From: Ostrea edulis
Lineage: Eukaryota
Assembly (NCBI RefSeq): GCF_947568905.1
Contig: NC_079168.1
Coordinates: 30,814,001 to 30,878,000 of the forward strand
Direction: 5' to 3'
Length of the DNA: 64,000 bases
The translations under genes and the position numbers were made by a program. The notes under the pieces are model-generated. The model did not search any database, was not told the DNA's origin, and saw only the letters and a program-made list of their open reading frames with translations. Below, piece by piece: positions 15,498 through 38,819 of this stretch. Numbering within the stretch: position 1 is the first letter of the stretch; every line of letters begins with the position of its first letter.

Positions 15498-16309
15498 ATA
15501 TCTGCCTGTTATATATGATATGACTACGGAAGAAGAAAATTCGGACTAACACTAAGTTATTGTTAGTTCGAATTTTCTGTTTCCGCTGTCAAACTTAGTA
15601 ACGTTAGTTTTGTAAATAAAAACGTATGCGCAAATATCCCAACTAAAGCGTACGACTAAACCATGGATGTTTTTCATCTAAAACAATTTTTTTATAAAAA
15701 GAATCAAGTCCAAAAACAAGATTATGAACATATTACAATACCAAGCAACCGGCTAGATCTACGAAATCCGTCCCTGCTCGAATCTACTTTCACTTTCAAG
15801 TAAAATAGAGTTACCCTCCTTTCACTGCGCACTTATCGAAGGGGCGTTTCCAAATAAACAACTGGGGTTGCAGTCGGGTTTCGTTCGCCTGGTTGAGTAT
15901 AGATTCGTTTCCTTATTATTGTAATCTTTTCTTTGGGTTAATCAGGGGTATGTAATTAAAAATATTAGTCATGGGGCTAGTGGTAGTAACAAAGTTACTA
16001 GGGCATAGCCCAGATCGTCGGTTAGCGCGTATAGCGCCGTGAACTATACTGACAGTAATATATTACAAAAGCCAGTGGCGTAGCTAGGTTTGAAACATTT
16101 GTAAGCATTTGTATTTTCTGAAAATCGGTATAAAATCCAGTGAAATCCTGTGTATTTCTATGTATTCCTGTGTATTAAATCTAAAGAATAACACAAGGTT
16201 TTAAGTTGACATGTTTATTAAAGAACAATGGTACAAGCATAGAACAATGCAAAACAGTTCAATAAGCATAAAAACAGTTCAATAAGCATAACAGTTCAAG
16301 CACAGTCCA

Positions 16310-17098
16310 TTACTTTCTGCTGAGTTTCTTCTTCTTTTTTGACGGTTCTTCAGTAGGTGCGGGCGGATTCCACATCTCTAACGGTTTGTATTCTCTCTTC
16401 ACAGGGGGTTTTGAGCCAGGTACGGGCCCAATCATCGCATCTATCTCCGGTTGTTCTTTTGGACACTCACTAATCCAGTGTCCTATTTTTCCGCATTTGT
16501 AGCAAGGATCCTTTTGTTTGGTTTTCTTGCTGGTCTGTTGAGAATCTGCTGACCTCGATTTCTTACTGGTCTGCGGATAATCTGTTTTCTGTGGGCAATC
16601 CGGCGACCAATGTCCTGTTTCTCCACACGTGTAGCACGGGTTAGCAGTGTAATCTGGAGTGTATTCCTTCCTAGGTTTTTTAGAAGTCAGCTCTTCCATC
16701 TTCTTCAGCAGGACTGTGGTATGATTTCCAATCTCATTACTCAGCACATTAATACGGTTAACGATCCCGTCTAGTGTCGTGGTAATGATCGCAAAGTCTT
16801 CTTTGTTCATGGTCGGAGGCTCATTCTGAGCGTTGTAGAGGCCCAGTTCCAGTCCCGTGACATCTTGTGACTCTGGGATGTCCGGGGAAAAAAATCCCAA
16901 GCCGGGGTCTGTAGGATTCTGGCTAGGTAAAAACTCCTCAGTCTTAGCCTTTTTCAGCTGTTGTGCTATGTAACCCTCTTGTACCTCCTGTCTATCTTCT
17001 TCGCTCAAGAAATCTTGTTGCATTCCCGTCTTTTTCTGTACCATGTTATTCACTTTCTTCTGAGCTCTGTCCACGTATTCTAGCTGTTTCTGAGCCAT
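16310..17098 (-). CDS. Intronless 262-aa protein with two CCHC zinc knuckles (nucleocapsid-like) and a basic C-terminus
   Basis: CYTCGETGHWSPDC and CYKCGKIGHWISEC; upstream TATAAAAG (minus strand, about 17151-17158); downstream AATAAA near 16213. Confidence 0.8.
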   Translation of the reverse strand: MAQKQLEYVDRAQKKVNNMVQKKTGMQQDFLSEEDRQEVQEGYIAQQLKKAKTEEFLPSQNPTDPGLGFFSPDIPESQDVTGLELGLYNAQNEPPTMNKEDFAIITTTLDGIVNRINVLSNEIGNHTTVLLKKMEELTSKKPRKEYTPDYTANPCYTCGETGHWSPDCPQKTDYPQTSKKSRSADSQQTSKKTKQKDPCYKCGKIGHWISECPKEQPEIDAMIGPVPGSKPPVKREYKPLEMWNPPAPTEEPSKKKKKLSRK

Positions 17099-17237
17099 GT
17101 TCTCAGGTCAGGGTCTGAAGTCGATGTGTAGAGTGAGAATGGGGGCTCTGCTTTTATACTCCCTTTTCGCAGAATATTCATAAACCGCGCTTCTAAATCG
17201 AAAACGAGGCTACCGTCGTATCCAAGTATAAACAAGT

Positions 17238-19845
17238 ATGGCGTCGACCTTAGACGGAGGCAAGAACGACAGGCATTGTTGCGTGCCGAACTGTAATGGA
17301 AATGGACGCCGCAACCCAGAGCTCTCTTTTCATCAAATCCCACAAAGATTGGAGCTTCGCAAGGCTTGGATACATGCTATTCGGAGGGATCCTGGTCCAT
17401 TATTCAGAGTATGTTTATGTAACTTTGTTCCAAATAATACGGAGAGATGACCCCCTTATATCATAGAATTAAGTAGGCCTCGAAATAGGTTGGTCCTTGC
17501 ACGTGTGTACGTCAGTGTGTGTTTAATGAAATGACTTCAAACAAGTCTTAACGGGTTATAATCTTTCTAACAGATCTGTGATCAAACAGTTGTTTGCTCA
17601 CGTCATTTTAAGAGGGACGACTTCAAATGGACCCCAGTAAGGAAGACACTCAAGAAAGAAAGTGTTCCTTCCATATTCAACTGGAAATCTGACGAAAAAG
17701 CTGCGCGACGGGAAATTTTTAAGCATCCTGTTCCAGAGAAAATGCCTAGATTTGACACTGATGAGAATAACAACAACCCGGTCTCAAATGAAAATTTAAA
17801 TTTGAATGTGGAGAGGTAATGGCATTTTAAAAATCTCTATAATTTATGTGATAGTCAATCAGAATGAATCAGGTTATATCCATAACATTATATAGGTCTA
17901 TGTGTGTGTCATTTTATTTAACAGAAGGTCTGACTAATTTTACAAGAAGCACATGTAATAATCGAAGCAATGTTTCTTTTTCTACCTTCGAATTACTATT
18001 TCTATAAACAGTTGAAAATACTAGGAGAATCAAGGCAAATATAATTTAGCAATAAGTATGATTTAAGTTTCTTCAGTGCTGCTGCATGTCATTGGGACTT
18101 TCAATGTGAAATTGGTTTTACTTATTGTTCATGAATTATTCTCAGAATGATTAATCAATTGTCAAACTAGTTTTATTCATGCTGGTTTGCAATTGTATTA
18201 AACTATTTTGAATAATTCAACTCACAACAAGATCAACTGCTGCTGGACAGTAGGATGCTGGATCATCAAGATCTTTGTGAGGTATGAAATTTTGTATTAT
18301 TCATTCAGACTTAGAAATTGTATTGAAATATTTTCACTATATTAAATGATGGTCTATAATAATAAAAAATACTGTATGTTTTGCACTTTGTTAAAGTAAC
18401 ATGCTCTATATAACTTTGAAAATCACCTGTGCTTATGTATATTTCTTCTTCTCTTAATTCATAGTATGAATGCTGTTCTTTACACCACCATGTTAATTTT
18501 GAGAAAATGATATTCTTATGTAATGATTTAATATGCATGTAATTTAAAATATCTACCAACTTCGAAAAGGTATAGAGCGTCCTCCTATAAATTTCACATT
18601 CATCAGAGATATGCATAATTTTGTAATATATAAATAAATGAATACATCGAAGTACACAAATACTTATTACTGACACAACAGAGATCCTTTATAAAAGATA
18701 GGGGGGGGGGGTGATCAGTCTGTAACTGGCTATGATGAAATTGTTTGACTAACTTTCCAATTATTTATACAGTATGGATGTGAATTATATATTGCAGCAG
18801 TATGTATGAAGAAGTGCAGCCTGAGACAAATAGGGTGAATGAGTTAGAGGATATGCTGAAGAAGAAGGAAGGGGAAATTCAAAAATTACAGCAACGACTT
18901 GAGATAGAAAGATTTGGCATTCAAAGATTTTCAAATGACAATGCATTAATTTCATTTTATACAGGTTTTGCATCCATGATCATGTTTACAACTTTTTATG
19001 AATTTATCAAACCTGGTGCTAATAGAATGACCAGTTATTATTACAGATCTTCTGACAGAATCAACCAGCACGTACTGGTGGGCAATCCGAGGAACATGTT
19101 GCTCATTGACGAATTGTTCATGTTTTTATGCCGTTTAAAATGTGGTCTTATGGAGCAGGATTTGGCTGTAAGATTTAAATGTCATTTGTCTACTGTAAGT
19201 AGGAAAATTATTACATGGGCAAATCTTTTATACTTTGCTCTTGGTAGCATAGATATCTGGCCAAGTAGAGAGCAAATAAATGAGAACATGCCTAACCAAT
19301 TCAAAAGTATGTATCCCTCTACACGGGTAATCATTGATTGTACAGAGTTAAAGACAGAGAGACCTTCATCTCTTGTTCTCAGTTCCAAGTGTTATTCGTC
19401 ATACAAAAGCTCTCACACATGGAAAGGACTTGTTGGGATTGCTCCACATGGAGCTCTGACCTTTGTATCAAGTTTGTACACAGGAAATATGTCAGATGTA
19501 GAAATTACCAAGCTTTCTGGCCTGATTGATCTCCTGGATAGGGGTGATTCAATAATGGCTGACAAAGGATTTGTTCTGAACAAGGTATTAGAGGGGACAG
19601 GTATTTCAGTTAACACGCCCCCATTCCTCCAAAGTCAAGGTCAATTTTCAAGGCAAGAAGTGGAGCAAACCCAGGTGATAGCAAAACTAAGGATACATAT
19701 TGAGAGGCATATCCGCAGAGTCAAGGAGTACCACCTTTTTGATGGTGTCATTCCCTTAAGTATGGTAGGAACAATAAATCAATTATGGACAGTGGCAAAC
19801 ATGCTAACTTTATTCAAGGGTCCTCTTGTCAAGGAATGGAAGTAA
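17238..19845 (+). CDS. THAP-domain DDE_Tnp_4 transposase (spliced)
   Basis: Exons 17238-17408 (CCVPNC..FHQIP..W) and 17574-17815 (VCSRHF..VPSIF) form the THAP domain; terminal exon about 18796-19845 has the HTH and catalytic IIDCTE, MADKGF, RIHIER motifs. Middle exon near 18230-18280 uncertain. Confidence 0.85.
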
Positions 19846-20493
19846 ATTGAAGATGAAATCAATCAGGAAAATGAGATAAATATATACAATTATCAGAATA
19901 TAAAAATTGTATCAGAATTGTACCAGAAATTAAAGTAACATATTACAAGATCTATAAATTTCATGACATGTAATTCACGACACATATTACCTGTGTGTTG
20001 GTTGTTTTATAATTAATAACAATAACTCTAGTTAATTACACAACCATATTTAGAAGTAACTTTCATTAGGAAAGTTTTTAAGCCCCCCCCCCCTCCCCCT
20101 TGCAACTAATGTTGGAGGAATATTAAATTTGTCCTGTCTATCCAAAAAATTAACCTGGCACATAATTTTAAATGGTAAGTGATAAAGCTCTCAGTCTTCA
20201 TATGTGAGAAAATTTGATTTGTTACCAAAGTTTCTGACCTCATGACCTTGAAGATTGATCTTCTTTTAAGAAAATATCTCCTGAATTATTTAAGGCATGC
20301 TTTCATATTTTGTATATAGATTTCTTATGGCAAGACTTTGCATTTAATAACATGACCGTTGACCTGGTTACTTTGGCATAAACATGTTGAAGCTGAATGG
20401 AAATAATTAGCAAATCTTGAATAGATATAGAAAATGCTACTTTAAGTAATGAAAACATTCCTTCAAATGAAAATGATCTATATCAAATATTGA

Positions 20494-23400
20494 TCAGCCT
20501 TTCAAGTAATGGTCAAAATAAAACATATCAAGCTTGTCTTTCATTTCTTGCCATCTACTTGAGTCAAATGTTATAAGCTCAAGATGAGATTCATCTGAAG
20601 TCCAAACAAACAAGTAACACTACTCTAGTCCTGTTACTGCAAGCTGCATCATAATCTGATGAAAATAGTTATGTGTCCTATTCAGTTTAAACCCATTTTC
20701 ATCCTTGTTGAGGTAAACACATTGTGATAGGGGGTTGACAGGACACTTGATTTCCAGTAAACCATAACATGGAGTAAGGGCAGGGCAATACACCTTTCTG
20801 TCTGGGCTTGCTGCCAACCAAGGTGACCATGGACTGACACATATTCCACAGGGATAAATGTTGACATTGTCATTCATCCTCTGAAAATACAGAAAGTAGT
20901 AGAACATAGTTTTAAAATATTGCTGACTCTTATATATGTTTTATTTATTTGTATGATTTTTTTTTTACATGAAATCTTTCATCAATACATTGGTGCTTTA
21001 TTCAAAACACATATCCAAAGACCTCAAATTATGACAATATTATTTATATTCAAAAGATCTTGTAAATTTTGTGTATTTATTTATAATTTATGTATTTATC
21101 AAATTGATATACATGTATAGACCTATGCATTTAGTTTTCTTTGGGTTAAATGCCTAAGGTATTTACAACTGGACATATAATAAGTGGACTAGTTATTCTA
21201 ACAAATATTTGTGCCTGCATTTATTATCAAATACATGAAAACATATATTGTAAGAGTTCTTACTGCTACAAATGCTTCAGCTGCTGTAGGCTCACATGCT
21301 ATCCCATGTCTCATATTGGCTGTCACCACAGATCTGGAAGTCCTTAGTCGCTCCACCAAGGGGTCATAGTCTATACCAAAAACAGCATTGTTTGAAAATT
21401 TGTTTTTGAAAAGAAGTTGTTCAATGTCTTTAATTTGTAGCTATTGGTCAATTAACTAAACAAGCTAAGCTAAGGCACCACTGAGGGCTACAAATTTAAG
21501 ACATACAAGAAAAATTGAACTTTACATTGTACTATATATACAATTGTTCTCTAGAATAATAATTCATGATCTTGTCTATTTCGTTGAATTAAACATGTTG
21601 TATTTTAAGTGTACATATCAAATTAAAAATGCAGAATCTTATTTGAAATGTAGTAATGTTCATTACATGTATCAAGCCGATACATTTTTCACATAATTAC
21701 CTTTTCTCCTTTTGACAATGGAACCAGCAATAGATGCCGTTATCCTATCAAGCCTAATCCTGTGCCATTTGGGATCCTGGGACTGTAACTGAGTCAGAGA
21801 TTCTATCTCTGAAGCCTCATCAGTAGTGACACTTAATGAGTCAGTTTTCAAGTGTTTTGTTTCAGATAACACAGTAGATATATTGTTAATCATCACATTT
21901 TGAGATGGTAATTTAGGAAAGCCATCAGCATCCAATATATTCAGAATTAAATTACTGTTCATTTTTTGCTGCACTGCAAGTGGACTCCCCTTGGGGAATT
22001 TGCCAAACTTCGTGTCTACAACTTTCTCCTGACGTTCTAAATTTACCACGCTCAAAAGCATACAGGTGTCGTCAACTTCTTCAAGGTTATCACACAATTC
22101 CTGTAAAGGTAGTTCGGACACATTTTCAATAGGGTTGTATAATGTTGTTCGAATTCCTCTAGGTGGCACATATGGGTTCCTCATATCAAAACCTAACACT
22201 CGAACGTTGTCAATGGAGCTCCCTGCTACCTTTTCCCCTCTTGGTACATGCCATGTTTGTGGAAGTGAGGTTTTTGCTACATCTGTTGGAATAACCAGCA
22301 TTCCAGTTGTTTTCATATGAGCAAGAGTATACAAAAGACCTGTAATGTGACCACATGCACCAGAGGTTCCAATTGGACAGGAGCAACTGCTGTCATCTCT
22401 CTCAAATATTGGTCCTGATTTTAGATGTATCTGTAAAGACAAATTTAAAAACATTAAGTAAATTAATGTAAATTTAAATATTTTAAAACAAGTATAGTTG
22501 GATTTAGGTAATAATTTAATAGTCAATTCATTTATTGTACAGTGTTTAACAACAAGTGGTCCATGGGCCACATTGCTCACCTTGGCCCATATTTAAAGAT
22601 TTTCCCTATAAATTTGTATGTAAATCTTTGTTTCCCTATTGTGCCTGCACCCTAACTCTGGGTGCCGTATGTTAACAAACTTGAATCTACACTATGTCAG
22701 GAAGCTTTTATGTAAATGTTAACTTTTCTGGCCCACTGGTTCTTGAGAAGAAGACTTTTAAAGATTTTCCCAATATCCCAACAGGAAAAAATTTGATCCC
22801 CAATTGTGACCCCACCCTACCCCCAGGGGTCATGATTTTAACAAATTTGAATTTCCACTATGTCAGGAAGCTTTCATGTAAATTTCTGCTTTATTCTGGC
22901 TCAGTGGTTCTTGAGAAGACCTTACCCTAGTTTTGCATTTTTGTGATTATCTCCCCTTTGAAGGGGGTATGGCCTTTCATTTGAACAAACTGGAATCTCC
23001 TTCACCCAATGATGATTTGTTTCAAGTTTGGTTGAAATTGGCCCGTTGGTTCCGGAGAAGCAGTCGTTAGTATGAAAATTTTACAGACAGACGACAGACA
23101 ACAGACAATCAGAAAAGCTCATTTAAGCTTTCAGCTCAGGTGAGCTAAAAATGAATTATACAACTTCAATGCAGTGATCAATACATTGGTACAGATGTTG
23201 ATATGAATGGGTTCATCTGGAGGGAGGAACCCCCCACATGCATGTATGGGTGAGTGACCACCCTATCAAGTTGGACTCAATCCCAAATTTCAGAGGGGAA
23301 ACCCGAGTTCTAAGGAAGCATATGCTTTAACCAATAATTTTTGTATACTGGTATTTGTGACTATAACTTACAGGTTAAGTAGTACATATTAGATGGTATC

Positions 23401-24982
23401 TCAAAAATGTAAATAGAATAATTAATCATTATGATACATATGACTGATAAAACATCATAAACAATCAAATTGAATATTACCTCAATTGTGTGTGGAGACT
23501 CATTTTTCTTCTGTGATCGGTAGGATCTAGCTTTAACAACACAGCCATCATCCAATTTATACACTACAATAAGAAATGTTTGATTAAAATTTTATTACAA
23601 GTGTATATATATATATATATATATATAACACATATACTATATTTAACAATTACATTATGACTACATGATAATGATACACATGTATACCTTAAATACACAT
23701 GTTAAGAATTTCTATATTGACATTGGTCTAGAGTTGGCTCATACAATGTAACAATACTTATTGAAAATGCACTGTATAAGAAGGATGATATATGGGGAGT
23801 TGTTGTTCTGAACACAGGGGGTACCAAGGGACAGTGCCTGCATGTGTCATGTCGACTAGTCTTGTACCCTAAGTATTCGAAACAGCTTATCTATAGTATA
23901 CAATTTTAACAATTGAACATTATAACTACATGATACAATATACATATGTATACCATGATATATGCATGTTATGGTTACATGTATGATGTAATGTCTCATG
24001 TGGTTTACATTGTCTAAGCACATGCTACTAGTAATACAGTGTATTATGTATGAACCATGAGAAACCATGTTTGCACATATGCACTGTTTGTAGTTTCTTC
24101 ATGTGATTTCAATATAATGTTATCTGTAGGTGTTGCGGTGAAATCACACATCAAATGCAAAGTTGAAACTTTACGGCACAAGTTAATTGCATGTAATACG
24201 TTAAGTATTAATACCATGTTCAAAATGTCTCATGTTATGAACATTGTTTGTAGCTCATAATACTAAATTACAATGCACTTTTTTTTTCTTCTTCTCATAA
24301 ACATTACATACTGAAATCTGTCAAATGCATTATGATTTAAACATATCTTATTGAGAATATATATGTATTAATAATAGTGATGTATGCCCAGGAGGGCCCT
24401 AATTTGGAATAAATAAATCATATGATATATATATGCAGGGGCTATAAATTGATAAAATGATGCTAGTTTGTCATAAATTAACTCATTGAAACTACTAGAT
24501 TATTTATCATTCAACAAAAATATATGGTTTTTCAGCAGGCTGGGATGCTATAGGCCTAAAACTTTTTTTTCTGAGGGAGGGGAGGGGGGGGGGGGTACTT
24601 GGACATGTATACGATCGATCAGTTTTACCAACAATCATCATATTTAATTCATATAACTAATTATTATGTAAGATCATCTCTTCAGTAGACATCTTTGTTA
24701 CATGCTGATATGGTGTAAGTTACAGCCACAAAACGATTCAAGATCGATCAGTTGATAGTATCTGTCAAACTGATCAGCTGATAGACGATTTGACCTACCT
24801 CTGATATCCGAGATGTATTTCTCGCTGAAATATTTGTATCCCTTGGAAACTTCTTTGCATCCTTCACTCTTGTTTAAAGTTTTTATTGTTTCTTCAACAA
24901 AACCGAAGGTAATGAGGGGGACAATACTGAGATCTCGCGTTGCGCAACCAACCGACTTCGTACATTCCGCTAAATCCGACAT
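20494..24982 (-). pseudogene. SWIM zinc finger plus YqaJ (lambda-type) exonuclease gene of the ISL2EU element, with one nonsense codon
   Basis: Exons 24799-24982, 23481-23563, 21701-22430, 21264-21370, 20494-20880. SWIM CSCPIG..ACGH; YqaJ WHRIR..RITAS, LAASPDR, LLEIKCP, YFHQIMMQL. TAG at 20620-20622 falls where GLEW is expected and the frame continues CYLFVW...YLKG to a stop at 20494. Confidence 0.85.
22551..23151 (+). mobile_element. HINE inserted in an intron of the YqaJ gene
   Basis: AACAAGTGGTCCATGGGCCACATTGCTCACC ... AGCTCAGGTGAGCTAAAAA with 166-bp-type units. Confidence 0.85.
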
Positions 24983-25065
24983 GTTTGTTGTGCGTCGAAA
25001 CCGACGGTAGCCTCGTTTTCGATGCGGTATGCATATTTATGAGCATCTCATTAAGAAAGGAAACC

Positions 25066-25271: not shown

Positions 25272-25372
25272 GGTAGTGCACTTATTGCACTGATTGGGGC
25301 TTGGGGGGTTTGTGTGTCACTCATATTTGTTTTAAAGTAGCTCTAAAAAGGGCTGTGCATGAAGTTTTTATT

Positions 25373-25876
25373 TTAAAAATGGCCGGCTTCATACGCAGGT
25401 TCTTCTATATACACGTGTAAGTCATGATCTTCGGATATAATGTGCTGTACTAATTGTCGAGCTCTTCTCCCAGGGAAACGTATCTCTTCGACGGTTTCCC
25501 ACATCCAGTCTGCATCCCAAAACAATCCCCATACACTTCTTCGGTGACGTGGTTTCTCCAGTCGAATAAATCCCGATACTTTTTGAGTGCCGTTCAATAA
25601 CGTGTAAAACTGGTAAATCATGTACTGTATGAGGGGGGAATTTTTCAGGTACATGTCACTTAAACGCGACCAAATATCCTCCACTGTTTCATGTGACCGC
25701 AATACATAGTCAAAACACCAATTTTTAGATCGGCCCCAGCGTAATCGATGGCGACATCTCTGTACTAAATTGTCCCAGATCTCCATCTCGTCTACATAAT
25801 CTTCTACTATGGTTAAATTCTCCACTTGTTGTATTCCCTGGCGGCGTCTCGCTCTTAAAACTCTCCGTGTATCCAT
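25373..25876 (-). CDS. Polinton accessory protein resembling a catalytically dead CRESS-virus Rep (HUH) domain
   Basis: SKNWCFDY..(about 25 aa)..YMIYQFYTLLNGTQKVSGFIRLEKPR..V..LF..A.W parallels the Rep pattern WCFT...YLIYQ.E...GT.HLQG(F/Y)..F.KP; the HxQ and YxxK motifs are absent. Confidence 0.5.
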   Translation of the reverse strand: MDTRRVLRARRRQGIQQVENLTIVEDYVDEMEIWDNLVQRCRHRLRWGRSKNWCFDYVLRSHETVEDIWSRLSDMYLKNSPLIQYMIYQFYTLLNGTQKVSGFIRLEKPRHRRSVWGLFWDADWMWETVEEIRFPGRRARQLVQHIISEDHDLHVYIEEPAYEAGHF

Positions 25877-26013: not shown

Positions 26014-26346
26014 ATGGGCGGCAGTGCTACTACGAGAATGGATGGATATAGCTATGTACTACAATGTATGAACGTGGCCTTACATGACCCTCTCATTCAA
26101 AATGCTCGTCAATTTGTACAAGAGATGTCACCGGAGGTCAGAAATGTACATAGTTTTCAACGGATTGCTGATTCATTAGCGGAGAATACCAATACGGGAC
26201 GTTTACTCATGATTTATTTGTATGCTGAGGAATTGAAACAGAACCTTCCAGACCAGATGAGTGACATTGATCGGATCTTACGCGATTGTCTACAAAAAGG
26301 ATTCGTGGAACTGATTCGTATGAAAGGAATGGCTGTCCTGTTATAA
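26014..26346 (+). CDS. Bcl-2-like protein 1 (Polinton)
   Basis: SFQRIADSLAENTNTGRLLMIYLYAEEL aligns by eye with BH1 (F..V..ELF.DG.NWGRIV.F...L); LQKGFVELIRMKG sits at BH2 spacing; TATAAATA at about 25974. Confidence 0.7.
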   Translation: MGGSATTRMDGYSYVLQCMNVALHDPLIQNARQFVQEMSPEVRNVHSFQRIADSLAENTNTGRLLMIYLYAEELKQNLPDQMSDIDRILRDCLQKGFVELIRMKGMAVLL

Positions 26347-26382
26347 AACAAGAACGTTTTGGAATTTTTTCATTTGATCATC

Positions 26383-26739
26383 ATGGCTGAATGGGACAAC
26401 AACAATTTTCTTACCGCTGTATTACAGTATTTCAAGGACTACAAAGAATCGGTGAACAACGCTCGTAGCGCTGCATTACAGTGTATCAAGGACTGGAAAG
26501 AAAAACAGCCGTTGAGATATAAATTCGCCATGAAGTTGTTGATCTTTTGGGAATTTCCTATGACCTTATATGAATATTCCGGCGTTTGCAAGCATATAGC
26601 CGACAACCTGAACAGAGAGTCTGGATTGATCATGATTTATACCATGGAGCAAGAATTTAGACGACGGGAACCTGAGAAGACTGGGGCGATTGTAGCGATT
26701 ACCGATCACTGGCTGGAAAAGGTGTATAAAAAAACCTAA
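26383..26739 (+). CDS. Bcl-2-like paralog 2 (divergent)
   Basis: EYSGVCKHIADNLNRESGLIMIYTMEQEF aligns with the BH1-like segment of paralog 1; all-helical, similar size. Confidence 0.5.
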   Translation: MAEWDNNNFLTAVLQYFKDYKESVNNARSAALQCIKDWKEKQPLRYKFAMKLLIFWEFPMTLYEYSGVCKHIADNLNRESGLIMIYTMEQEFRRREPEKTGAIVAITDHWLEKVYKKT

Positions 26740-26767
26740 CCGTTTTCTTTTCCTTTATTCCTGGAGG

Positions 26768-27073
26768 ATGGCCAGCAGTGACCACATCACAGAGAAAGCG
26801 ATAGCTTATGTATTGGATTATCTCACAGACATTCATTCTTGGCAGTTTGAATTTGTGTTACACTATCTGCGAGAAGAATTATTTCCCATCAGCTTAAAGG
26901 AGTATCCATGTCTCTGTCAGCATTTGATCGAGAACCGGATCACCCCGCAAGCCTTAGTACTGATTCATTTAATGGGCCAGGAATTGAAACGAATTCGACC
27001 CACAGACAGAGCAGAAATCGAGAAAATCAGACTACGATGTCTTCGAGAGATGTACGTCAAGTTAAACGTGTGA
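26768..27073 (+). CDS. Bcl-2-like paralog 3 (divergent)
   Basis: FPISLKEYPCLCQHLIENRITPQALVLIHLMGQEL matches paralog 2 FPMTLYEYSGVCKHIADNLNRESGLIMIYTMEQEF. Confidence 0.5.
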   Translation: MASSDHITEKAIAYVLDYLTDIHSWQFEFVLHYLREELFPISLKEYPCLCQHLIENRITPQALVLIHLMGQELKRIRPTDRAEIEKIRLRCLREMYVKLNV

Positions 27074-27252
27074 CCTTTAATCTGGAACGGAATCAAGTGT
27101 ATTGGCTACCTGAAGAAGATCGAACCAGTCCTTGGATGACCATGGCCGTGGATCGATGTCGATTTCAAACTAGGATTCGAGCCATGGAACAGATCTTGGA
27201 GCCTATATTGAATGACTTTTTACAAAAAACTGTTTTTGAATTGATATTGTGA
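27037..27252 (+). CDS. 71-aa PP1 regulatory subunit mimic, GADD34/ICP34.5/DP71L family
   Basis: RVxF motif KRVTF followed by R.SPW...AVDRCRFQTRI..MEQILEPIL, matching the GADD34 C-terminal R.GPW...ARDR.RF.RRI...E..L.P.L; AATAAA at about 27260. Confidence 0.85.
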   Translation: MSSRDVRQVKRVTFNLERNQVYWLPEEDRTSPWMTMAVDRCRFQTRIRAMEQILEPILNDFLQKTVFELIL

Positions 27253-27810: not shown

Positions 27811-28593
27811 ATGGCAGGCGCTAGTTATGATTTTCAAGGAGGGTTTGACTCACGTTTCCGACTTGTAGTCATTGGCGAGAAGAAAGAAGGGGATACCTGG
27901 GTGCAGTCTAGTATTACAGAACTGGGGGTGTTTACACCCCCAGATTTGACCCAAGTCATAGTTAACCGGGCGGTCGATCGAGCTCGAAAGAGGTATGGCG
28001 CCGAGGGAGGAGGACCATTCCGTAGCACCTTTACTAGGATGCGGGACTTGGCCACAGTAGCTGCGACAGCGCCACCGCCACCGCCTCCGTCCTCAGCATC
28101 CCACACCGTGCCGCCACCCAGACCAGCGACGCCGCCTAGCCCTAGGTTGTCCAGGACAGTGTCGGCCTTCCTGCCACCCCCACCACTACCGCTAGCGCCA
28201 CCCCCACCACTACAGCTATCGCCACCATCACCACCACCTATGCTAGAGTACACTCCGGTGTCAAGTCCAGAGGTTTCCCCGAGGTCGCCCTCGCCCCAGA
28301 GCCGCGCCAGGAGCAGGTCGCCCAGCCGGAGGACCCCGCCACCCAGACCCCCGCCGCCCAGAGTCATCAATTGCCCGATCACCAACAGAACCATTAGGAT
28401 TCCGCCATGGGCCGTAAGAGTGCGGGACCGGCTGATGAAATGCCCCATCTGTTGGTTGGACGACCGGCATTCCGGGATCAAGTGCCGGGGGTGTGGGCAG
28501 CGAGTAGTATGCTGCGATTGCCTCGAAAGGAATGAGAACGGGCGGTATACAAGAGGAAGGTGTCCGCATTGCCGGCATGAGGGACCCCATTAA
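27811..28593 (+). CDS. Proline/SR-rich protein with C-terminal RING-type finger
   Basis: CPIC..CRGC..CCDC..CPHC; central poly-Pro and RSRS tract; ATG at 27811 downstream of a promoter cassette. Confidence 0.7.
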   Translation: MAGASYDFQGGFDSRFRLVVIGEKKEGDTWVQSSITELGVFTPPDLTQVIVNRAVDRARKRYGAEGGGPFRSTFTRMRDLATVAATAPPPPPPSSASHTVPPPRPATPPSPRLSRTVSAFLPPPPLPLAPPPPLQLSPPSPPPMLEYTPVSSPEVSPRSPSPQSRARSRSPSRRTPPPRPPPPRVINCPITNRTIRIPPWAVRVRDRLMKCPICWLDDRHSGIKCRGCGQRVVCCDCLERNENGRYTRGRCPHCRHEGPH

Positions 28594-28777
28594 AGAACAG
28601 GGAGACCAAACGGCCCTTTTCAGGGCCACCAACTTTTTTTGAAAAGACACTTTTTATTGCAAAAATCAAGAAACACACAAGTTTTTTTTTTTTTAAAGTT
28701 TTATTAACACAAGTCACATAGTAGGCAGAATAAAGTTTTTTTTTACAAGTAATAGCTAGAATAAAGCTATAATAAAG

Positions 28778-29275
28778 TTACATTTTCTTGACAATGTAAA
28801 CATGTTTATGATACTGATAAGCAAAGTCACAAATCCATTGTCTATAATGAGTCCAATTGCCTCCGGCTAATCCACATCCAATACGATAAGGAAACGCTAA
28901 AGTCTGGTAAGACAAAGTGCCTAATTCCTGTAAACATTGTTGAAACCAAAGTTCACGTTGTTCGGGGGTATCGGCATACAGGGGTAAGCGTTGAGTGCCT
29001 CTCCCGTAATCCCATTGCGCTAACAAACAGATCACATCAGGATGAGTAGAATGAGGCATAATACACACAGTACCCGGTATTCCTCGATCCGCTTCTATAG
29101 CTAAATTTCTCCGTCCTAAAGGTTGTCGGGTCGCATACAGATTAGCCCAAGGAAATCGGTCGGCAATACGTTGACTTAATCCATGAGGTTTCACCGTTAA
29201 ACAGTTACATTGTTGTACAATAGCATCCACCCAAGGTAGAGATAATACATCTCCTCGTAGATCCGTCACCGACAT
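28778..29275 (-). CDS. Macrodomain protein (ADP-ribose binding/hydrolase, TARG1/Poa1-like)
   Basis: GDVL..DAIVQQCNC..HGLSQRIADRFP ... LAFPYRIGCGLAGGNW are macrodomain signatures. Confidence 0.85.
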   Translation of the reverse strand: MSVTDLRGDVLSLPWVDAIVQQCNCLTVKPHGLSQRIADRFPWANLYATRQPLGRRNLAIEADRGIPGTVCIMPHSTHPDVICLLAQWDYGRGTQRLPLYADTPEQRELWFQQCLQELGTLSYQTLAFPYRIGCGLAGGNWTHYRQWICDFAYQYHKHVYIVKKM

Positions 29276-30375: not shown

Positions 30376-30873
30376 TTACAATACATTCAGTCTTTGACAT
30401 TGACAAGTTTGTCCTTGATGGGTTCTCGGTTTTCGGAAGGTCTCTTTAAACCAATCAGCCACAAAACGATCGCGTTGTAAGGCCGTGCCTTTCCAGGGAA
30501 GTAACCATTCTTGTACGGTGCTTCTATGTCGATGGCGTTGATGTAAAAAATACACACAGTATTGTCCACAGACATCCGTATTCAAATCTTGATAACAATG
30601 GGTGTTATGAATCCAAGTCTCTCCGTGGCGTTGAATAAAGTCTTGGATGTCTTTATGGCTGGGAGGTAATCCGTAAGAATCAAAATATTCGACGGTAGGG
30701 CTACTCAAATACAAACAGACTCAATGCGCTCCAGGGCGATCGTGAGGGTCTGTATTCACCACGATGGCTTTGTGATGAGGTAACAGCTCAGGTATGACAT
30801 CTCGAGGATACACACCTGCAAACGCCGGTCCTAAATCTCGTTGTAAAACATCTCTCAATTGCTGAGTATCCAT
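30376..30873 (-). pseudogene. Polinton adenain-like cysteine protease with a nonsense mutation
   Basis: MDTQQL...VVNTDPHDRPGAH*VCLY..EYFDSYG..CYQ..VCGQYC; TGA at 30721-30723 replaces the Trp after the catalytic His. Confidence 0.9.
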
Positions 30874-30888
30874 CTCTCTCTCTCTCTC

Positions 30889-32292
30889 TTAGTAATCGAT
30901 GCTGACTTCTCGTTGTTTGTTGATTTCTAGCAGATTGTCGAACACGGCATACACCACACAGTTTAAGGTCCTGGCCACGTTGGCGGCAAATTGCACTTCC
31001 ACTCTCAAGTTCCCAGTCTGTATGAGCTGAAATTTATCCGTCTGGGCTTCTTGATCTTTCGTGAAATCCACACACCAGAGGGTGTAACCGTTTTTATACT
31101 CTTCCAGGGTAATGTCCGGAGCCCAGTCCTGGCCTAATTTTCCCAAGCCTTTGTACAGACTCAAATACGATCTCAGGTACTGATCGTCGGTGAAATTAGG
31201 TTCCAAAGGTCGGGTTTCCATCATTTCTCCATTGATACTGATTTCTAATTTCTTGACTTTCTCATTTTGGAAATGAAAGGGGTTTCTGGTATTATCCCCA
31301 TTAAAAGCCGCATTGTCCACAAAGCCCAACACGACCAGTTTAGGCATCTGTCCTTGAAACAGATGATCGGTGATTTTAGATTGGGTGCCACTAGGAATGG
31401 TGAAGGTTTTCACTTCCACTCGTCTCAATGGATATTTCGCCGTTTGAGTACTCAGTTGCTGATTGATGAGATTAATGATACTCGGCACAGGTTTGACTTT
31501 CCTCACCCACAAGATCATACTTTGAATGACCACTTTCCCACTACTCCCGGCAGCGGTCATCATGTAGAACTGGGGTCGAGCGCGATTGAATCTGAGACGG
31601 ACATCCACGCCATTAGGGAGACATTTCTCTTGCTCAAACAAATCCAGATGTAATCGATCCATCAACACGATCTCCTTACTGTCTGTAATCTTCTCGTGAC
31701 GTTTTCTCAACCCTACATTCTTGGAATCATCCGGATACTCGGGAGTCGGGATGACGGCCGCGATGTTGACTTTGTTAGACACTACTGCAAATTCCACAGG
31801 AGTTTGAGTCAGAGCTTCTAATTTGACCTCATCCATATGTCCTGCCGTATCTTTTTCCCACAAGCTACAGGCTCTCATCTGGGTTTCCAGAGTCTTGGGT
31901 GCATAAGACAACAATTTCTCCAGATACGCTTTGTAGGGATAAGTATCCGTCCCCGGGGTAATGACTTTTCCATTGAGACTGACATCGATTTCACTGAACA
32001 AGGAATGGAGAATGTTATTCACGGGGGTCGAGGTCGAATTGCCTCCTGCGAGATTCGTTCCATTGGCTTTCGTGAATTTACATACCATCTGGAGATAAGT
32101 TTGGGATAAATCCAGATATTCATCTCCTTGTCCTTTGATTTCAAATTCAATCGGAGCCGTATCCGAGTTGAGGGTACTGGAAATGGGGTAATATTCCATC
32201 CATTTCGAATCTTCTAAAGTGACGTTGGTCGGGGGCACTTTAAACAGTTCTAAACTGTCGGTGCCACAAGCGCAAGATTCTCTGTGCATCAT
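30889..32292 (-). CDS. Polinton major capsid protein (double jelly-roll)
   Basis: 467 aa open frame; ELFKVPPT...PIEFEI...YLDLSQTYL...[17 protein letters not shown]...YPYKAYLE typical of Maverick MCPs. Confidence 0.92.
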
Positions 32293-32371
32293 ATTGGAAC
32301 GATGTGTTACTCAGCGTGAACTGGCATCAAATGTGTTCTGGTCTCCTTCTCACCCCCTTTTTATAAGGTTC

Positions 32372-33052
32372 TCAGTCGAAAATATCCAGAGAGCGTTTTG
32401 GCTTACCCCTTTTCACTAGCTTCCTACCTCCCTTCCTAGATCGCTTCCTAGGTCTCTTATGAGGCCCTCCCCGAGCTAAGATACGTTGTTTTCTTTTAAC
32501 AAATCCTTTTCCTTCCTGTATTCCCACCTGTTTTCCCGCCTGTTTTCTTTTGAGGGTCGTGGTTCCAGGCTTCCTGAGTATTCCTGTGCGCGCTTTTCTT
32601 CCTCGTTTGGATGGGGCTTTTCGAGACCTTCGCCTACGAGCATACCCTGCTGTCTCTTTCAGGGCTTGGGCACCGTGTGTCTTGAGAGCGTCTTTGAGTG
32701 ATCGTTTATTATCTAACACATCCATCCCTGTTTTAGCAGCAGCCTTTAAGGCACTTTTAGCCCCCGATTTGAGTAAATCGGTGAAAAATCCTTTTCCCTT
32801 CTGCTTTTCAGATTCTGGATCATATTCTTCTGTTGGATGGATTCTACGTCGTCTCCTCTGATAAGAGCGATAAGGGCGGTCGTAATCATAATATCTCTCT
32901 TGATAGACAGGACGCTGTTGTTGTTGTTGCTGTTGTGCGGGGGCTCCACCTAATAATCCGCTGATCAGGGGACCCGCCACTTTGCTAGCTATTCCCAGCA
33001 GGGCTCCAAGCCCGTGACCCTGCTGCCGTATTAAACCTTTATGGTAGTGCAT
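32372..33052 (-). CDS. Basic core/virion protein with QxGxG motifs
   Basis: RQQGHGLG, KQKGKGFF, IQEGKGFV; Arg/Lys-rich; lies directly upstream of MCP. Confidence 0.75.
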   Translation of the reverse strand: MHYHKGLIRQQGHGLGALLGIASKVAGPLISGLLGGAPAQQQQQQQRPVYQERYYDYDRPYRSYQRRRRRIHPTEEYDPESEKQKGKGFFTDLLKSGAKSALKAAAKTGMDVLDNKRSLKDALKTHGAQALKETAGYARRRRSRKAPSKRGRKARTGILRKPGTTTLKRKQAGKQVGIQEGKGFVKRKQRILARGGPHKRPRKRSRKGGRKLVKRGKPKRSLDIFD

Positions 33053-33079
33053 CTTGATGTAAATGAACTTCGTTAGGGG

Positions 33080-33223
33080 TTACACCCGCTTTTTATACTT
33101 TTTACGCCGTCTCTTTCTCTTCTTTCCTTGGCCCGCTTGACCCGCAATGGCATTGGCAATCCATGGAATGAGAAACCAGATTCCGTGTCCTTTCTGGCGT
33201 CTGACTCCTCGATGGTACTTCAT
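33080..33223 (-). CDS. 47-aa basic core peptide (below the ORF-track cutoff)
   Basis: MKYHRGVRRQKGHGIWFLIPWIANAIAGQAGQGKKRKRRRKKYKKRV; its N-terminus parallels MHYHKGLIRQQGHG of the next gene. Confidence 0.7.
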   Translation of the reverse strand: MKYHRGVRRQKGHGIWFLIPWIANAIAGQAGQGKKRKRRRKKYKKRV

Positions 33224-33226
33224 CTT

Positions 33227-34212
33227 TCAATACACTTTGCGGAAATGAAGTTTGACTAAGGACCGCCCATTTAAAAAGCCCATAGGACGCCCTAAAGAAT
33301 TCATGATGTGTACCTCAATGGTATCGAAATATTTCTTACTCAGTTTCAAATATTCGGCTCGAATCGGTTCCCAACGGGCTTGTTGTCGATCGTCGTATTG
33401 AGCCGTACAGGGGACGACTCTCAATAATTTCAATTTGTTGGTGCCCACCACTTGAGGATCCACAATGTCACAATACACATACATGGCTTTCAGATTGTCG
33501 TAGACATCCATGGTCGTGTTCCCCAAGTAATTCACGTTGATCCATTTCGTCATGGTTTCATGGCCCAGGATCATTTTGTCACTATCCAGACCTAGCTTGT
33601 ACGCTAAGGGCGTAGGGAAACGAATGCACATGGGGGTGGCTCTCAGTGTTCTCCCATTAAAGTGATACTCGACACGATCGTACTCGGGGTGATACACTAA
33701 GATCTGGTTGTTCCCCTCTTCGTTAGGATCCCCTAACTCGCTCCATACTTTCCACAGGGTTCTCCTTAAGGCTGCGTTGATTTCATTGATTAACGCCAAA
33801 GGTTGTGTATAAGCTCCGGGTCGGAAGTGAATGCGAATGATATCGAAGGGAAATAAACTATCCCCTCCCTCAAAGAGATGGGACCATGGCGTCAGATGCC
33901 AGGGGACCACCACCACACACCTGGCCATCGTGACTTTGCCCATATTCTCTGTCTTAAATCTTTCCCATTTATAAGTGTTGGGATCTTGGACATGTTTCGT
34001 ATACGGATCTGGAATGAGAACGTCCACATAAGTCTCGCTATCCGATACGTTTTGTAAGTTGGCCGAGTACATCATCCGACTTCCCATTCTCCATCCGTTA
34101 AGTCCATGGTGTGTGGCAATAACGTTTTAAATTGAGCAGTCGTATTCGTCGGAAACGATTCCATCGACCCATCACTCAACAGAGTCATGTAAAACCCTTC
34201 TCCTCCAGCCAT
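33227..34212 (-). pseudogene. Polinton minor capsid protein (penton-like) with a frameshift
   Basis: MAGGEGFYMTLLSDGS...LPHTMDL.DGEWEVG then a frameshift near 34075 into ..MMYSA...MYVYCDIVDPQVVG...LLRVV...LHFRK. Confidence 0.85.
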
Positions 34213-34329
34213 GATGTCTTAAATGAGACCCTGTCTCTGTTTCCTTCTCTATTTATACACAACACCGTTTTGTTTTTTCACAATTTTTATTTGAAACAAC
34301 ATACAACATGACAATACATTCAATTCAAT

Positions 34330-34779
34330 TCATTCTTCTTGATCGCGGCCACCACCGCACATCAACGCATCCGAGTCTGGTAACGTCAGGATTCGTCTCG
34401 GGACTAAGCGTCGTCGCATCACCAGATAGTGTCGGGTTCCCCAGCAATCGGCTACATCATAACCTCCATTGATCATGTCTTTAAAATGGTGGAGACAAGC
34501 TTTCACGTTGTCGTACCAAGGACTATCATTTAAGGTCCAATCGGATTCGTCTTGTCGTCCCATCAATCCCCAGAAGGCTTTGACTTTCCAGCGAAACTCT
34601 TGATATTTAGTCTTTCTGATAAATGGCACCCAACCATCAGGAATCACGATCCGTTTGTACAAGTACACAGGATGCGTCGACGTTTTGTGTTGTTTACAAT
34701 GCATCAAACACATCTGCTTATCCCAGAACCAGGTACTTTTCTTCCCCTCTTGTTTCCAGGCGTACTGTGGCTTAGCCAT
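34330..34779 (-). CDS. 149-aa Polinton orphan protein
   Basis: Open frame with own TATA (about 34814-34820) and downstream AATAAA; no recognisable motif. Confidence 0.6.
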   Translation of the reverse strand: MAKPQYAWKQEGKKSTWFWDKQMCLMHCKQHKTSTHPVYLYKRIVIPDGWVPFIRKTKYQEFRWKVKAFWGLMGRQDESDWTLNDSPWYDNVKACLHHFKDMINGGYDVADCWGTRHYLVMRRRLVPRRILTLPDSDALMCGGGRDQEE

Positions 34780-35019
34780 GGTGAACTGATCTCTCAGGTG
34801 AAGGGGACTCCTGTTTTATAGGAGGTGCATTCATTTGAGGACTAGGCATGACGTAGCCCACCAAAGAACTTAAGGTCACCATCCAAAAATCGCGATTGGG
34901 ATCGCGTATGGCTAACATGACTACCGAGGTGATAATGATGGTTCAACAGAGGAATAATTGTGCAAAATACACAATTTCACTCCGGGGGACTTTTTCACCC
35001 AAGAAAGTCCACTGGGTGG

Positions 35020-36105
35020 TCATGACAGAATGAGATCCGCTTGCGGAATCCATGAATCAAAACTGGGAGGATATCCTTTCCAACGCACTTTGACTTCTGA
35101 AATGACTTTTTTTCCCACACGCCGCTTTTTATACCCTAAGATTTCTTCCACTTCATAGACATCATCGTCTTTAATCACTTGTTGTAATTCCTTCTCGTAA
35201 AAGGTTCCTTCTAATTCTTCCCCGTGATCATCTTGAATGCGATAGACGTTTCGTCCTGGCACTTTTCTAGAGATGGTAAACAGTTCTTTGGTCCAATTCG
35301 GTAAATATCCTTTTTCAAACGTACGTTTGGCTTTACTAATGCGTACACGATCCCCCACTTGCAAGCGACTCGTGGTATCGGCACTCTGTTTTCCATACAA
35401 GGTTTTCCATACGGTCAAGACATTCTTGGCATTGACTTGAGCAGGAGCTCGCCGGATACTGCGATGATAGGTATGATTGTAACCATACACCAGATCGGCC
35501 AAGACATCGACATACCGTCGTGTTTTATGGCCTGTAAAATACCGCCACATGCGTGCTTTCAGCGTGCATTGAAAACGTTCCACAATACTGGCTTTGGTTT
35601 CGGCATTACGGGTCGTAAAGAAATGAATGGATTTGAAGGCTTGACGAAATTCTTTATTGGTAAATTCTTTTCCTTGATCGGACTGAATGCGCACGGGGCG
35701 ACGTCCCTCTCGAAAAATCCGTCGTAAGCCTCGTATCATTTCTTTCCCCGTTTTCTGTTTTAAAGGCACGACCCAGGCATATTTAGACAGCACGTCAATG
35801 GCACATAATAAAAACGTATACCCATTATTGTCTTGTTTCAAGCTGGAGACATCGGCTAAATCTAATTGCCATTGTTCATCCATATCCGTCACTCGTGTTT
35901 GTCGTCGCTTGAATTTCCTCCGTATCGGTTTATGCAAGGTATAGGTATCTTGAGCTTTCACCCATTCTCGAATTTGAGACAGGGTAATCTTGTGTCCTAA
36001 TTGACGCACTTGACGATACAACGCCTGGACTCCCCCATAACCTGTCTTGGGATCGTAATACAGTCGCTGTAAGATCTGTTCTGGTTTCATGGTAGATTTA
36101 ACCAT
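35020..36105 (-). CDS. Retroviral-like integrase with C-terminal chromodomain
   Basis: WQLDLAD, IQSDQGKEF, ASIVERF DDE triad; YEVEEIL..VRWKGY..FDSWIP chromodomain. Confidence 0.95.
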   Translation of the reverse strand: MVKSTMKPEQILQRLYYDPKTGYGGVQALYRQVRQLGHKITLSQIREWVKAQDTYTLHKPIRRKFKRRQTRVTDMDEQWQLDLADVSSLKQDNNGYTFLLCAIDVLSKYAWVVPLKQKTGKEMIRGLRRIFREGRRPVRIQSDQGKEFTNKEFRQAFKSIHFFTTRNAETKASIVERFQCTLKARMWRYFTGHKTRRYVDVLADLVYGYNHTYHRSIRRAPAQVNAKNVLTVWKTLYGKQSADTTSRLQVGDRVRISKAKRTFEKGYLPNWTKELFTISRKVPGRNVYRIQDDHGEELEGTFYEKELQQVIKDDDVYEVEEILGYKKRRVGKKVISEVKVRWKGYPPSFDSWIPQADLILS

Positions 36106-36851
36106 TTTCCGATGTCACGGGCCGTCTTTCTACCAGCATCTCTGATCGGTTTAGGGGTTAGACGTTGCGGTGTTTCATAGAACGATTGATCAAATCCCGT
36201 GAGCTCTTGAAATCCACTCTCCTCTTCCTCTAGAGGTCTAGGCGTACTGATTTTCCCTGGTTTGTCCATGGCTTTTATAACATCCCGATTGCTCACATAT
36301 CCTTTGGGAGCATGAGTCTCTTTTAACGCTTGAGCAAATTCCTCTAATCCCGCGGGGGGATCACGATGTCTTAAGGGTCTTTGTCGCTGGGTTTCGCTCA
36401 TTAAATCCACAATATTGGAATCGGGAACCCTGCGTCCTCTATAGCTGATTCCTCCTTCTTTATTCCAAGTCACCACTTTGGATTTCTTGAGATGATCGAG
36501 TAATAAACCTGCTTTCTTTTGACCCGGTTTATTGACGCTTTTGATAATCTGTTCCTCCAAGTCATCGGGTGCTGAGGCGGCTGAGGGTGGTGAGGCGGCA
36601 CTGGCTGCACTGGTTGGGGAGGGCAGAGTCGCTGTGGTGGGATGTCGAGCTTGTTGTAAATATTGACGATAGCGATGAAGTTGATGACCGTACAACCCCA
36701 CTTTTTCTTTCTCGGTTAAATCATCTCGATGTTCAATCTCATCCAAATCACTGCGTAAACCAATAGTCGAGGTAAATTCGGGAGGTTTAGGTAATTTGCC
36801 TTTTAATTCGTTGAGCATCGCTTCCGGTACCAACACCATTTTTCGACTCAT
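36087..36851 (-). CDS. Conserved Polinton protein of unknown function
   Basis: MSRKMVLVP...KAGLLLDHLK..VTWNKEG.ISYRG..VPDSNIVDLM...PAGLEEF..AL pattern seen in Maverick core-block genes. Confidence 0.75.
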   Translation of the reverse strand: MSRKMVLVPEAMLNELKGKLPKPPEFTSTIGLRSDLDEIEHRDDLTEKEKVGLYGHQLHRYRQYLQQARHPTTATLPSPTSAASAASPPSAASAPDDLEEQIIKSVNKPGQKKAGLLLDHLKKSKVVTWNKEGGISYRGRRVPDSNIVDLMSETQRQRPLRHRDPPAGLEEFAQALKETHAPKGYVSNRDVIKAMDKPGKISTPRPLEEEESGFQELTGFDQSFYETPQRLTPKPIRDAGRKTARDIGKWLNLP

Positions 36852-37177
36852 GATTTCTTACAAATCTTGCCACACACAAACGAACCCAATCCTTTTTGGT
36901 GGATGAGTATACCTCGTCGTTTTTTCACAGGTTGAGGCTGGACTAAGCGTCTTAAGATGTGTTTCTTTCGACCCAGTTGTCGCTTCTGAGTAGGGGTGAG
37001 AGGAATCACCCCTTTTAATAGATTGTACACAATCTCACAAATCTTTAAAATGCAGTCATTGGAACAATGTTTCAACACCTCTGTCTTTAATTTGCTGGAA
37101 TAGTGAGGAGCCGCTAACGTCTGCAAGAGCGGTAAATGAGGTCGTAATCGACATTCACACTTCTTCGTATGAGCCAT
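36848..37177 (-). CDS. Small basic Polinton virion protein
   Basis: ICEIVYNLLKGVIPLTPTQKRQL..KKHILRRL...KRRGIL.QKGLG; TATA at about 37210. Confidence 0.7.
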   Translation of the reverse strand: MAHTKKCECRLRPHLPLLQTLAAPHYSSKLKTEVLKHCSNDCILKICEIVYNLLKGVIPLTPTQKRQLGRKKHILRRLVQPQPVKKRRGILIHQKGLGSFVCGKICKKS

Positions 37178-37217
37178 GGTAATGAAGGGTGGGGCACCTT
37201 CCCCCTCCTTTTTATAC

Positions 37218-38090
37218 CTAGTCCCGGACAATGGCACTCGGATGTTTAGGATCAAAACGCTTGTGATGGACGGTCTCTTCGTGACGATTGCGGTTCTCTC
37301 TCGCATTGAAGACCAGAGGGCAAAATTTACATTTATATTTCTTTTGCACCTGAACCGGTGTTGAGGTGGTTAAGGGTTGAAATTTCATGCCTCCAAAGGT
37401 ATGAGCAAAACTCGGTAGAGCAGTATCACTGGTTCTGGAACTTCCTATAGGCCCATGCATGGGTCGTTCCATTTTCTTTTGAGCTAATCCGGCTTTCAGA
37501 TCGGCTAACGTTTTAGTGGCCTTGGGGGGAGTGGCCTTGGGAAACGGCATCTTCACAATGAGAGGGGTTTTCTTTGGAGCCCAATTGGGAAACGGATTCT
37601 TCATCCTGAGAGGTGTCTTCTTAGGTGTCTTCTTAGGGGACTTCTTAGGTGTCTTCTTAGGTAAGCGAATAATGAGTTTAGGAATTCTCTGAGGCGATTT
37701 TTTAGCTTTCTTAGCCCGTGGTTTCTTGGTTTTCTTGGGTTGTCTCCCACGGGGCTTACGGCCTGTTTCCCATTTGAATAAATGACGGATAATGGTCCCT
37801 CCTAAGAATCCGGCGCCTCCTCGTTTCAAAATGGCTTTTTTACGCTCTTCTTCATTGGCCTTCTTATCGGCAATGACACTCAAGTCTTGGCGATGGGATT
37901 GAATGAACCGCTGAGTGATTTTATTGCCTGGTAAGACGCCTCGCAATAAATTTCGAGCTCCCATCGCAAACCAGTTGAGTAAGGCTCTACGTCCTAATTC
38001 AATGAGATGGCTCCGTTGAACGGGATCCCGTTCCCGTTGTAAACGGCGTAACGTTTTGACTAATTTACTCTTCGCGGAAGGTCTACCCAT
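37218..38090 (-). CDS. Basic Polinton protein with KKTP/KKSP repeats and a C-terminal C2H2 finger
   Basis: N-terminal part paralogous to 36848-37177 (NLLRGVLP...KKAILKRGGAGFLG); CKFCPLVFNARENRNRHEETVH zinc finger. Confidence 0.7.
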   Translation of the reverse strand: MGRPSAKSKLVKTLRRLQRERDPVQRSHLIELGRRALLNWFAMGARNLLRGVLPGNKITQRFIQSHRQDLSVIADKKANEEERKKAILKRGGAGFLGGTIIRHLFKWETGRKPRGRQPKKTKKPRAKKAKKSPQRIPKLIIRLPKKTPKKSPKKTPKKTPLRMKNPFPNWAPKKTPLIVKMPFPKATPPKATKTLADLKAGLAQKKMERPMHGPIGSSRTSDTALPSFAHTFGGMKFQPLTTSTPVQVQKKYKCKFCPLVFNARENRNRHEETVHHKRFDPKHPSAIVRD

Positions 38091-38139
38091 GGTGAAGACT
38101 GTCTTTCAAATGATACACCTGCCCATGATGTGACATTAT

Positions 38140-38778: not shown

Positions 38779-38819
38779 CTTGATAAATGACACAAGTTCA
38801 GGAAAATCATATCTATTTA

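Follow-up and report, generated by a model that had tools for sequence, protein, structure and literature searches.

The DNA considered here, hereafter the window, is a stretch of 64,000 nucleotides from Ostrea edulis (assembly GCF_947568905.1, contig NC_079168.1, positions 30,814,001 to 30,878,000). It contains, as originally proposed, a Polinton, which is recognizable by its genes for a protein-primed polymerase (pPolB), an rve integrase, an A32 ATPase, an IAP and a protease, and by a terminal repeat starting with AGTAGT. This copy is decaying, since its protease gene is interrupted (30382-30873) and its polymerase gene is split into two open reading frames (ORFs; 39385-43458); it is also without a left terminal repeat. 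Among its smaller genes is one for a 167-amino acid protein, Rep-like-1, which the original prediction described as an apparently inactivated Rep domain captured from a circular Rep-encoding single-stranded (CRESS) DNA virus. The coordinates of the ORF and the motifs quoted for it were verified in the sequence, and the analyses described below confirm that Rep-like-1 is a real, conserved and disarmed CRESS-type Rep domain residing in Polintons. The features of the locus are collected in Table 1.

The homology to CRESS Rep endonucleases is backed by both profile comparison and fold searches. When the Rep-like-1 family (25 rows) was compared with 86 natural CRESS Rep N-terminal domains using hhalign, a probability of 92%, an E value of 6e-7 and a score of 40.9 were obtained; the maximum among 100 column shuffles was 23.7 and the reversed family scored 13.5. 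The alignment is colinear across motifs I-III. The AlphaFold model used here has a core pLDDT of 82-88, an alignment of 14 sequences having given a model of insufficient quality (mean pLDDT 53). With this model Foldseek ranked CRESS Reps first in the PDB (E 3.3e-4), and a structure search of BFVD returned 111 matches at E<=0.001, all 18 of the named rows in the top 50 being Rep proteins. One further structure search, taken alone, placed CRESS Reps level with generic folds, and the ESM Atlas was supportive (0.93, CRESS clusters) but with a low recognition score. The Pfam profile Viral_Rep (PF02407) matched the ORF at E 0.044 and 14.5 bits, below its curated cut-off of 26 bits, and gave weak matches in six of 14 family members. 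Similarity to the HUH fold is thus present in profile and structure searches, Viral_Rep by itself being weak. Searches of PDB sequences with phmmer and hmmsearch produced chance matches only and reached no Reps, PHROGs yielded nothing useful, and a search of the genome with the PF02407 profile found no match, its controls being equally silent. Long matches among representative proteins were to unrelated tetratricopeptide repeat (TPR) proteins and were judged spurious.

In the Rep of porcine circovirus 2 (PCV2), Glu48, His57 and Gln59 are the metal ligands, Tyr96 and Lys99 are catalytic, and motif I together with a bridging motif docks the single-stranded DNA (ssDNA) nonanucleotide (bioRxiv 2020.09.01.278671). 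Through the alignments these five residues correspond to Y91, K99, S101, H145 and S148 of Rep-like-1. The predicted replacement of the metal-binding histidine is therefore true but understated, as all three ligands have been exchanged. The predicted absence of the YxxK of motif III holds for the residues but not for the position, which is not deleted and reads H145-x-x-S148. The corresponding residues are nearly universal in the 86 natural Reps (Glu 86/86, Tyr 86/86, Lys 85/86), among which His and Gln were preset by the search pattern. Motif I retains WCF, the subsequent TLNN having become DYVL, although its Thr and its Asn are each found in 84 of the 86 natural Reps, and the bridging motif contains an insertion. 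Rep-like-1 ends some 20 residues past motif III, so that neither an oligomerisation domain nor a superfamily 3 (SF3) helicase domain is encoded by the ORF, and the next gene specifies a zinc-knuckle protein. No longer, fused forms appeared in a length-free search of representatives, no search having been aimed at longer proteins. What Rep-like-1 shares with the CRESS Rep endonucleases (PF02407; PDB 6wdz, 7kii, 9pqf and 6h8o) is the fold, the order and spacing of motifs I-III and a residual WCF, GT and GF; unlike them it has no Glu/His/Gln triad, YxxK, oligomerisation domain or SF3 helicase, its motif I is altered and its helix-2 region is more basic. Lacking the defining catalytic features, it does not belong functionally to the CRESS Rep family.

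These losses are conserved among related Polintons, as the original prediction had asked to be checked. Y91, K99 and S101 are invariant in 35 of 35 copies drawn from three subfamilies, in 40 of 40 near-copies, and in five lineages. The first position of motif III varies among lineages, being H, A, F or Y (H-x-x-S in the window, A/T/I or F in others), and YxxK is retained only in one metagenome clade (P0005/P0035-P0042).

The carrier Polinton is present in the genome in more than 100 copies. Of 150 candidates scored in a genome search with Rep-like-1, 146 were matches, including 82 full-length, stop-free copies with 94-100% identity; 82 of the 86 near-copy loci have an intact frame. The remaining matches comprise eight fragments from the four broken near-copies and about 56 divergent sequences, and twenty divergent loci define two further Polinton subfamilies of identical gene order. 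The zinc-knuckle gene adjoins Rep-like-1 in 58 of the 60 loci fetched, the exceptions being the split copy of the window and locus L036. In all 20 low-scoring near-copies inspected the left end of the element lies 1.66-1.70 kb past the Rep-like-1 stop codon, so that Rep-like-1 is second in gene order as counted from that end. The ratio of nonsynonymous to synonymous substitution rates (dN/dS) between subfamilies is 0.31-0.50 at dS values of 1.0-1.6, which are near saturation; within subfamilies 2 and 3 it is 0.87 and 0.71, respectively. Among 40 of the 82 near-copies, taken in equal numbers from the top and the bottom of the score list, the ratio is 0.45-0.61 with p 0.03-0.09; the choice of the top 20 favours low dN, and the bottom 20 on their own do not reach significance. 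This pattern, as modest evidence from the sequences, would fit selection during spread followed by decay after insertion. Contigs from four presumed RNA runs cover parts of related Rep-like-1 copies; since two of them also cover the element terminus, they may be derived from DNA.

A search beyond this genome produced 19 proteins at E<=1; their names are uninformative, and each is encoded on a short metagenome contig. No relative was confirmed in viral or metagenome contigs. The genome holds no close member of the clade retaining YxxK, the best match having 43-45% identity.

A second dead CRESS-type Rep domain, Rep-like-2, is specified by a 110-amino acid ORF in subfamilies 2 and 3 and is absent from the Polinton of the window. 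It gave 57 matches among 58 candidates in the genome, and in 29 of 30 loci its neighbour is the gene for the protease. Against CRESS Reps it scored 34.0 by hhalign (shuffles maximally 22.9), and against Rep-like-1 10.0, which is the level of shuffles; the ESM Atlas did not recognise it. Its metal ligands are replaced and its motif III tyrosine is retained. Two separate captures are the simplest reading of these data; a quick tree (support 30, with the long branches meeting) does not decide between one and two. A third degenerate Rep (L227:1513-2019, + strand; G000:C5:5697797-5698300) is a single-copy open frame of 168 amino acids situated outside Polintons. It matches CRESS Reps with a probability of 98%, its tail resembles by eye a Rep oligomerisation domain, and it possibly represents a CRESS fragment endogenized long ago.

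Captured dead Reps are known from avipoxviruses, in which apvRep-1, -3 and -4 are described as endonuclease-only proteins with a dead HUH/HUQ motif and a missing tyrosine, maintained by purifying selection (PMC10193959). Rep-like-1 agrees with them in being a cressdnavirus-type Rep cut down to the endonuclease domain, inactivated in its catalytic motifs and fixed in position within a double-stranded DNA (dsDNA) element. It differs in that the recipient is a Polinton rather than a poxvirus, that the basic N-terminus lost in the apvReps is kept, that a krikovirus donor can be named for them and none here, and that in two of the three Polinton subfamilies it is accompanied by a second, dissimilar dead Rep. 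No disarmed CRESS Rep was found described for any Polinton in the literature text searched and in the portions of the PMC8502044 and PMC11071296 supplements available, figures and bioRxiv supplements lying outside the search; on this basis the occurrence in Polintons would be new, as would the second, dissimilar dead Rep. As it has many copies and is small, Rep-like-1 offers a test case for the role of captured, disarmed Rep domains in dsDNA viruses.

The original prediction pointed to a donor of the circovirus/nanovirus type. This could not be upheld: as the tree does not settle the branching and the stem is very long, no donor can be named. Genes resembling rep are likewise described, with products that act in replication, in mriyavirus-like polinton-like viruses (PLVs), Gulliviroviridae and some adomaviruses (bioRxiv 10.64898/2026.06.19.733378; 10.64898/2026.10.13.758929; PMC11071296), so that the donor may have been indirect. 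Supplement file 2 of PMC11071296 lists at least 22 CressRep labels; of these 22, seven are on adomaviruses, 15 on parvoviruses and none on adintoviruses. The PLVs, Gulliviroviridae and CressRep adomaviruses resemble the present case in that Rep-like genes reside in capsid-related dsDNA viruses; whereas theirs are replication proteins, here a dead enzyme accompanies an element with its own polymerase. Either way, directly or via an intermediate, Rep-like-1 documents gene flow from ssDNA viruses to Polintons, and the two therefore probably met in the same animal nucleus. An ancestral Polinton might have acquired the 5' portion of a rep gene in a nucleus that was co-infected. In the quick tree, whose root is on a very long branch, the clade with YxxK lies nearest to the Rep attachment, which suggests that the metal site was lost before the tyrosine.

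Seven basic positions of Rep-like-1 are conserved in all five lineages: R105, K108, R110 and R112, where strand 3 ends and helix 2 begins, and R42, K/R51 and R138 elsewhere. The 11 residues past motif II contain on average 5.55 lysines and arginines in 20 family rows, representing about five lineages, versus 2.47 in the 86 natural Reps; at least four are present in all 20 rows versus 16 of the 86 Reps. In RepB of plasmid pMV158 helix 2, its loops and the N-terminal tail read direct repeats in dsDNA, a property separable from nicking, and the Rep of adeno-associated virus (AAV) 5 and papillomavirus E1 use the equivalent helix for dsDNA (PMC9943647). A basic helix-2 surface of the E1/RepB type is likewise apparent in Rep-like-1, as judged from its sequence and model. 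Because the basic residues are conserved and enriched at the predicted dsDNA-recognition loop and helix, the reuse as a non-catalytic DNA-binding protein that had been proposed gains indirect support.

The reading we favour, with a probability of roughly 0.45, is that Rep-like-1 is a non-cutting protein which binds the dsDNA of its own element and regulates the ends or promoters. Selection would have kept and strengthened a second DNA-binding surface, composed of the basic N-terminal arm and the strand-3/helix-2 region. The targets might be short direct repeats, for example the GGTCAA repeats in the terminal repeats, or else promoter repeats, and the bound protein would tune transcription of the element or its protein-primed replication. 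The origin-binding domain of E1, which is not known to nick, would provide the parallel. E1, AAV Rep and RepB (PDB 1f08, 8amu) have the fold in common with Rep-like-1 and a helix 2 that reads dsDNA independently of nicking (PMC9943647), but theirs are parts of initiators with helicase or oligomerisation domains, whereas Rep-like-1 stands alone beside a protein-primed polymerase. It is also closer to CRESS Reps, with 14-20% identity versus 9-10% to E1.

Candidate sites are present at the element ends. GGTCAA occurs two to five times within the first 200 nucleotides of all 13 ends examined from three subfamilies; the right end in the window has it four times, and any 6-mer was found four times in 18 of 5000 shuffles. 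Rep-like-1 and these repeats are thus candidates for a regulator of Polinton ends and for its binding sites, the control of such ends being poorly known. No CRESS-type nonanucleotide was detected within 25060-25340 or 43381-43837, and folding revealed no long hairpin at the element ends (z 0.62 and -1.47). The ends of subfamily 1 also carry a perfect ATGCAAAT octamer at position 48, which is reminiscent of the Oct-1 site of adenovirus origins. Repeats containing GTGCCA are found in inverted orientation upstream of the zinc-knuckle and polymerase genes (25060-25340 and 43381-43837) in one subtype only, and subfamily 2 has tandem repeats of about 100 bp upstream of its Rep-like-1 gene.

Other roles can be envisaged for a dead Rep. 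The fold might serve as a protein-binding scaffold that modulates host defence or cell-cycle proteins, its gene belonging to a left-end accessory block. We consider this rather unlikely, for most of the conserved residues at the surface are basic and lie where homologs bind DNA, and the match to E4-ORF3 is at the level of a common fold only. Exclusion of co-infecting ssDNA viruses formed part of the original prediction; Rep-like-1 would then interfere with CRESS-DNA viruses either at their origin, which it would occupy, or by disturbing the action of their Rep. Polintons are nuclear, the basic N-terminal arm is kept, and the degenerate Rep at L227 suggests past contact with such viruses. A like idea has been raised for the apvReps (PMC10193959). 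The proposal is nevertheless weak and on balance improbable, because entry into a Rep hexamer would call for an oligomerisation domain, which Rep-like-1 lacks, and because motif I and the bridging motif, the very parts that dock ssDNA, are those that have changed.

It could also be argued that the active site has not been lost but rebuilt, with Y91, K99 and S101 (and, in one clade, the motif III tyrosine) forming a metal-independent site for nicking or end processing. The fixation of the three replacements across lineages only 35-50% identical would agree with this, as would the retention of YxxK in that clade. Against it, the motif III position is variable, fixed residues can be structural or phosphate-binding, and we know of no metal-free HUH enzyme, so that we regard a rebuilt site as very unlikely. 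That Rep-like-1 is a functionless, decaying passenger, or that its likeness to Rep reflects nothing but a shared ferredoxin-like fold, is largely refuted: the profile score exceeds those of all shuffles and extends colinearly over three motifs, nearly all near-copies have intact frames, and dN/dS between subfamilies is 0.31-0.50.

The binding reading can be extended, with considerable doubt, to the proposal that animal Polintons have taken up Rep nicking domains from ssDNA viruses on repeated occasions, at least two of them in this lineage, and made them into origin- or promoter-binding proteins of their own. If true, Polintons would have gone once more through the change presumed to have given rise to the papillomavirus E1 and polyomavirus T-antigen origin-binding domains, and a surviving intermediate in which the metal site is lost and YxxK is kept would reveal the order of events.

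Table 1. Features of the window (nucleotide positions) and the location of Rep-like-2 elsewhere in the genome
Feature	Position	Strand	Remarks
Polinton left part	16112..17158	-	zinc-knuckle ORF 16310-17098, usual direct neighbour of Rep-like-1
Inserted DNA transposon, 7.9 kb	17159..25059		DDE_Tnp_4 transposase, imperfect inverted ends; between zinc-knuckle gene and Rep-like-1
AATAAA polyadenylation-type signal	25367..25372	-	abuts the Rep-like-1 stop codon
Rep-like-1 ORF	25373..25876	-	167 amino acids; basic N-terminal helix and catalytically dead CRESS-type HUH endonuclease domain
Motif III position	25433..25444	-	H145-x-x-S148 where Reps have YxxK
Strand 3 basic end, loop and helix 2	25517..25564	-	R105, K108, R110, R112 conserved; predicted dsDNA-recognition surface
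Former metal site	25568..25606	-	Y91, K99, S101 at the positions of PCV2 Glu48, His57, Gln59; identical in five lineages
Motif I position, W53-L59	25700..25720	-	WCF retained, remainder D/E-Y-V-L
Three short paralogous ORFs	26014..27073	+	read in the direction away from Rep-like-1; first has weak Bcl-2 match, E 0.032
ORF with PP1c-binding domain (PF10488)	26908..27252	+	E 6e-8
Cys-rich RING-like ORF (+) and macrodomain-like ORF (-)	27811..29275		labels by eye, no Pfam match
Polinton core	30382..43458	-	protease, putative major capsid gene, integrase, A32 ATPase, IAP, protein-primed polymerase
Right terminal inverted repeat	43691..43837	-	starts AGTAGT (at 43837), four GGTCAA repeats; candidate target of Rep-like-1
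Rep-like-2	L025:1401-1730; G000:C5:27109200-27109529	+ (L025)	plus 56 further matches

As to the remaining genes, the one in the Polinton core which we take to encode the major capsid protein has no Pfam match, and the RING-like and macrodomain-like labels are presumptive. The 7.9-kb transposon separating the zinc-knuckle gene from Rep-like-1 is possibly of the Harbinger/ISL2EU kind. Several near-copies hold the block of short paralogous and PP1c-binding genes (26014-27252 in the window) that belongs to another subfamily, which indicates recombination between subfamilies. Beside the right end of the Polinton, at 45128-48552, are ORFs for a reverse transcriptase/RNase H and a tyrosine recombinase, which we presume to resemble those of DIRS/Ngaro retroelements.
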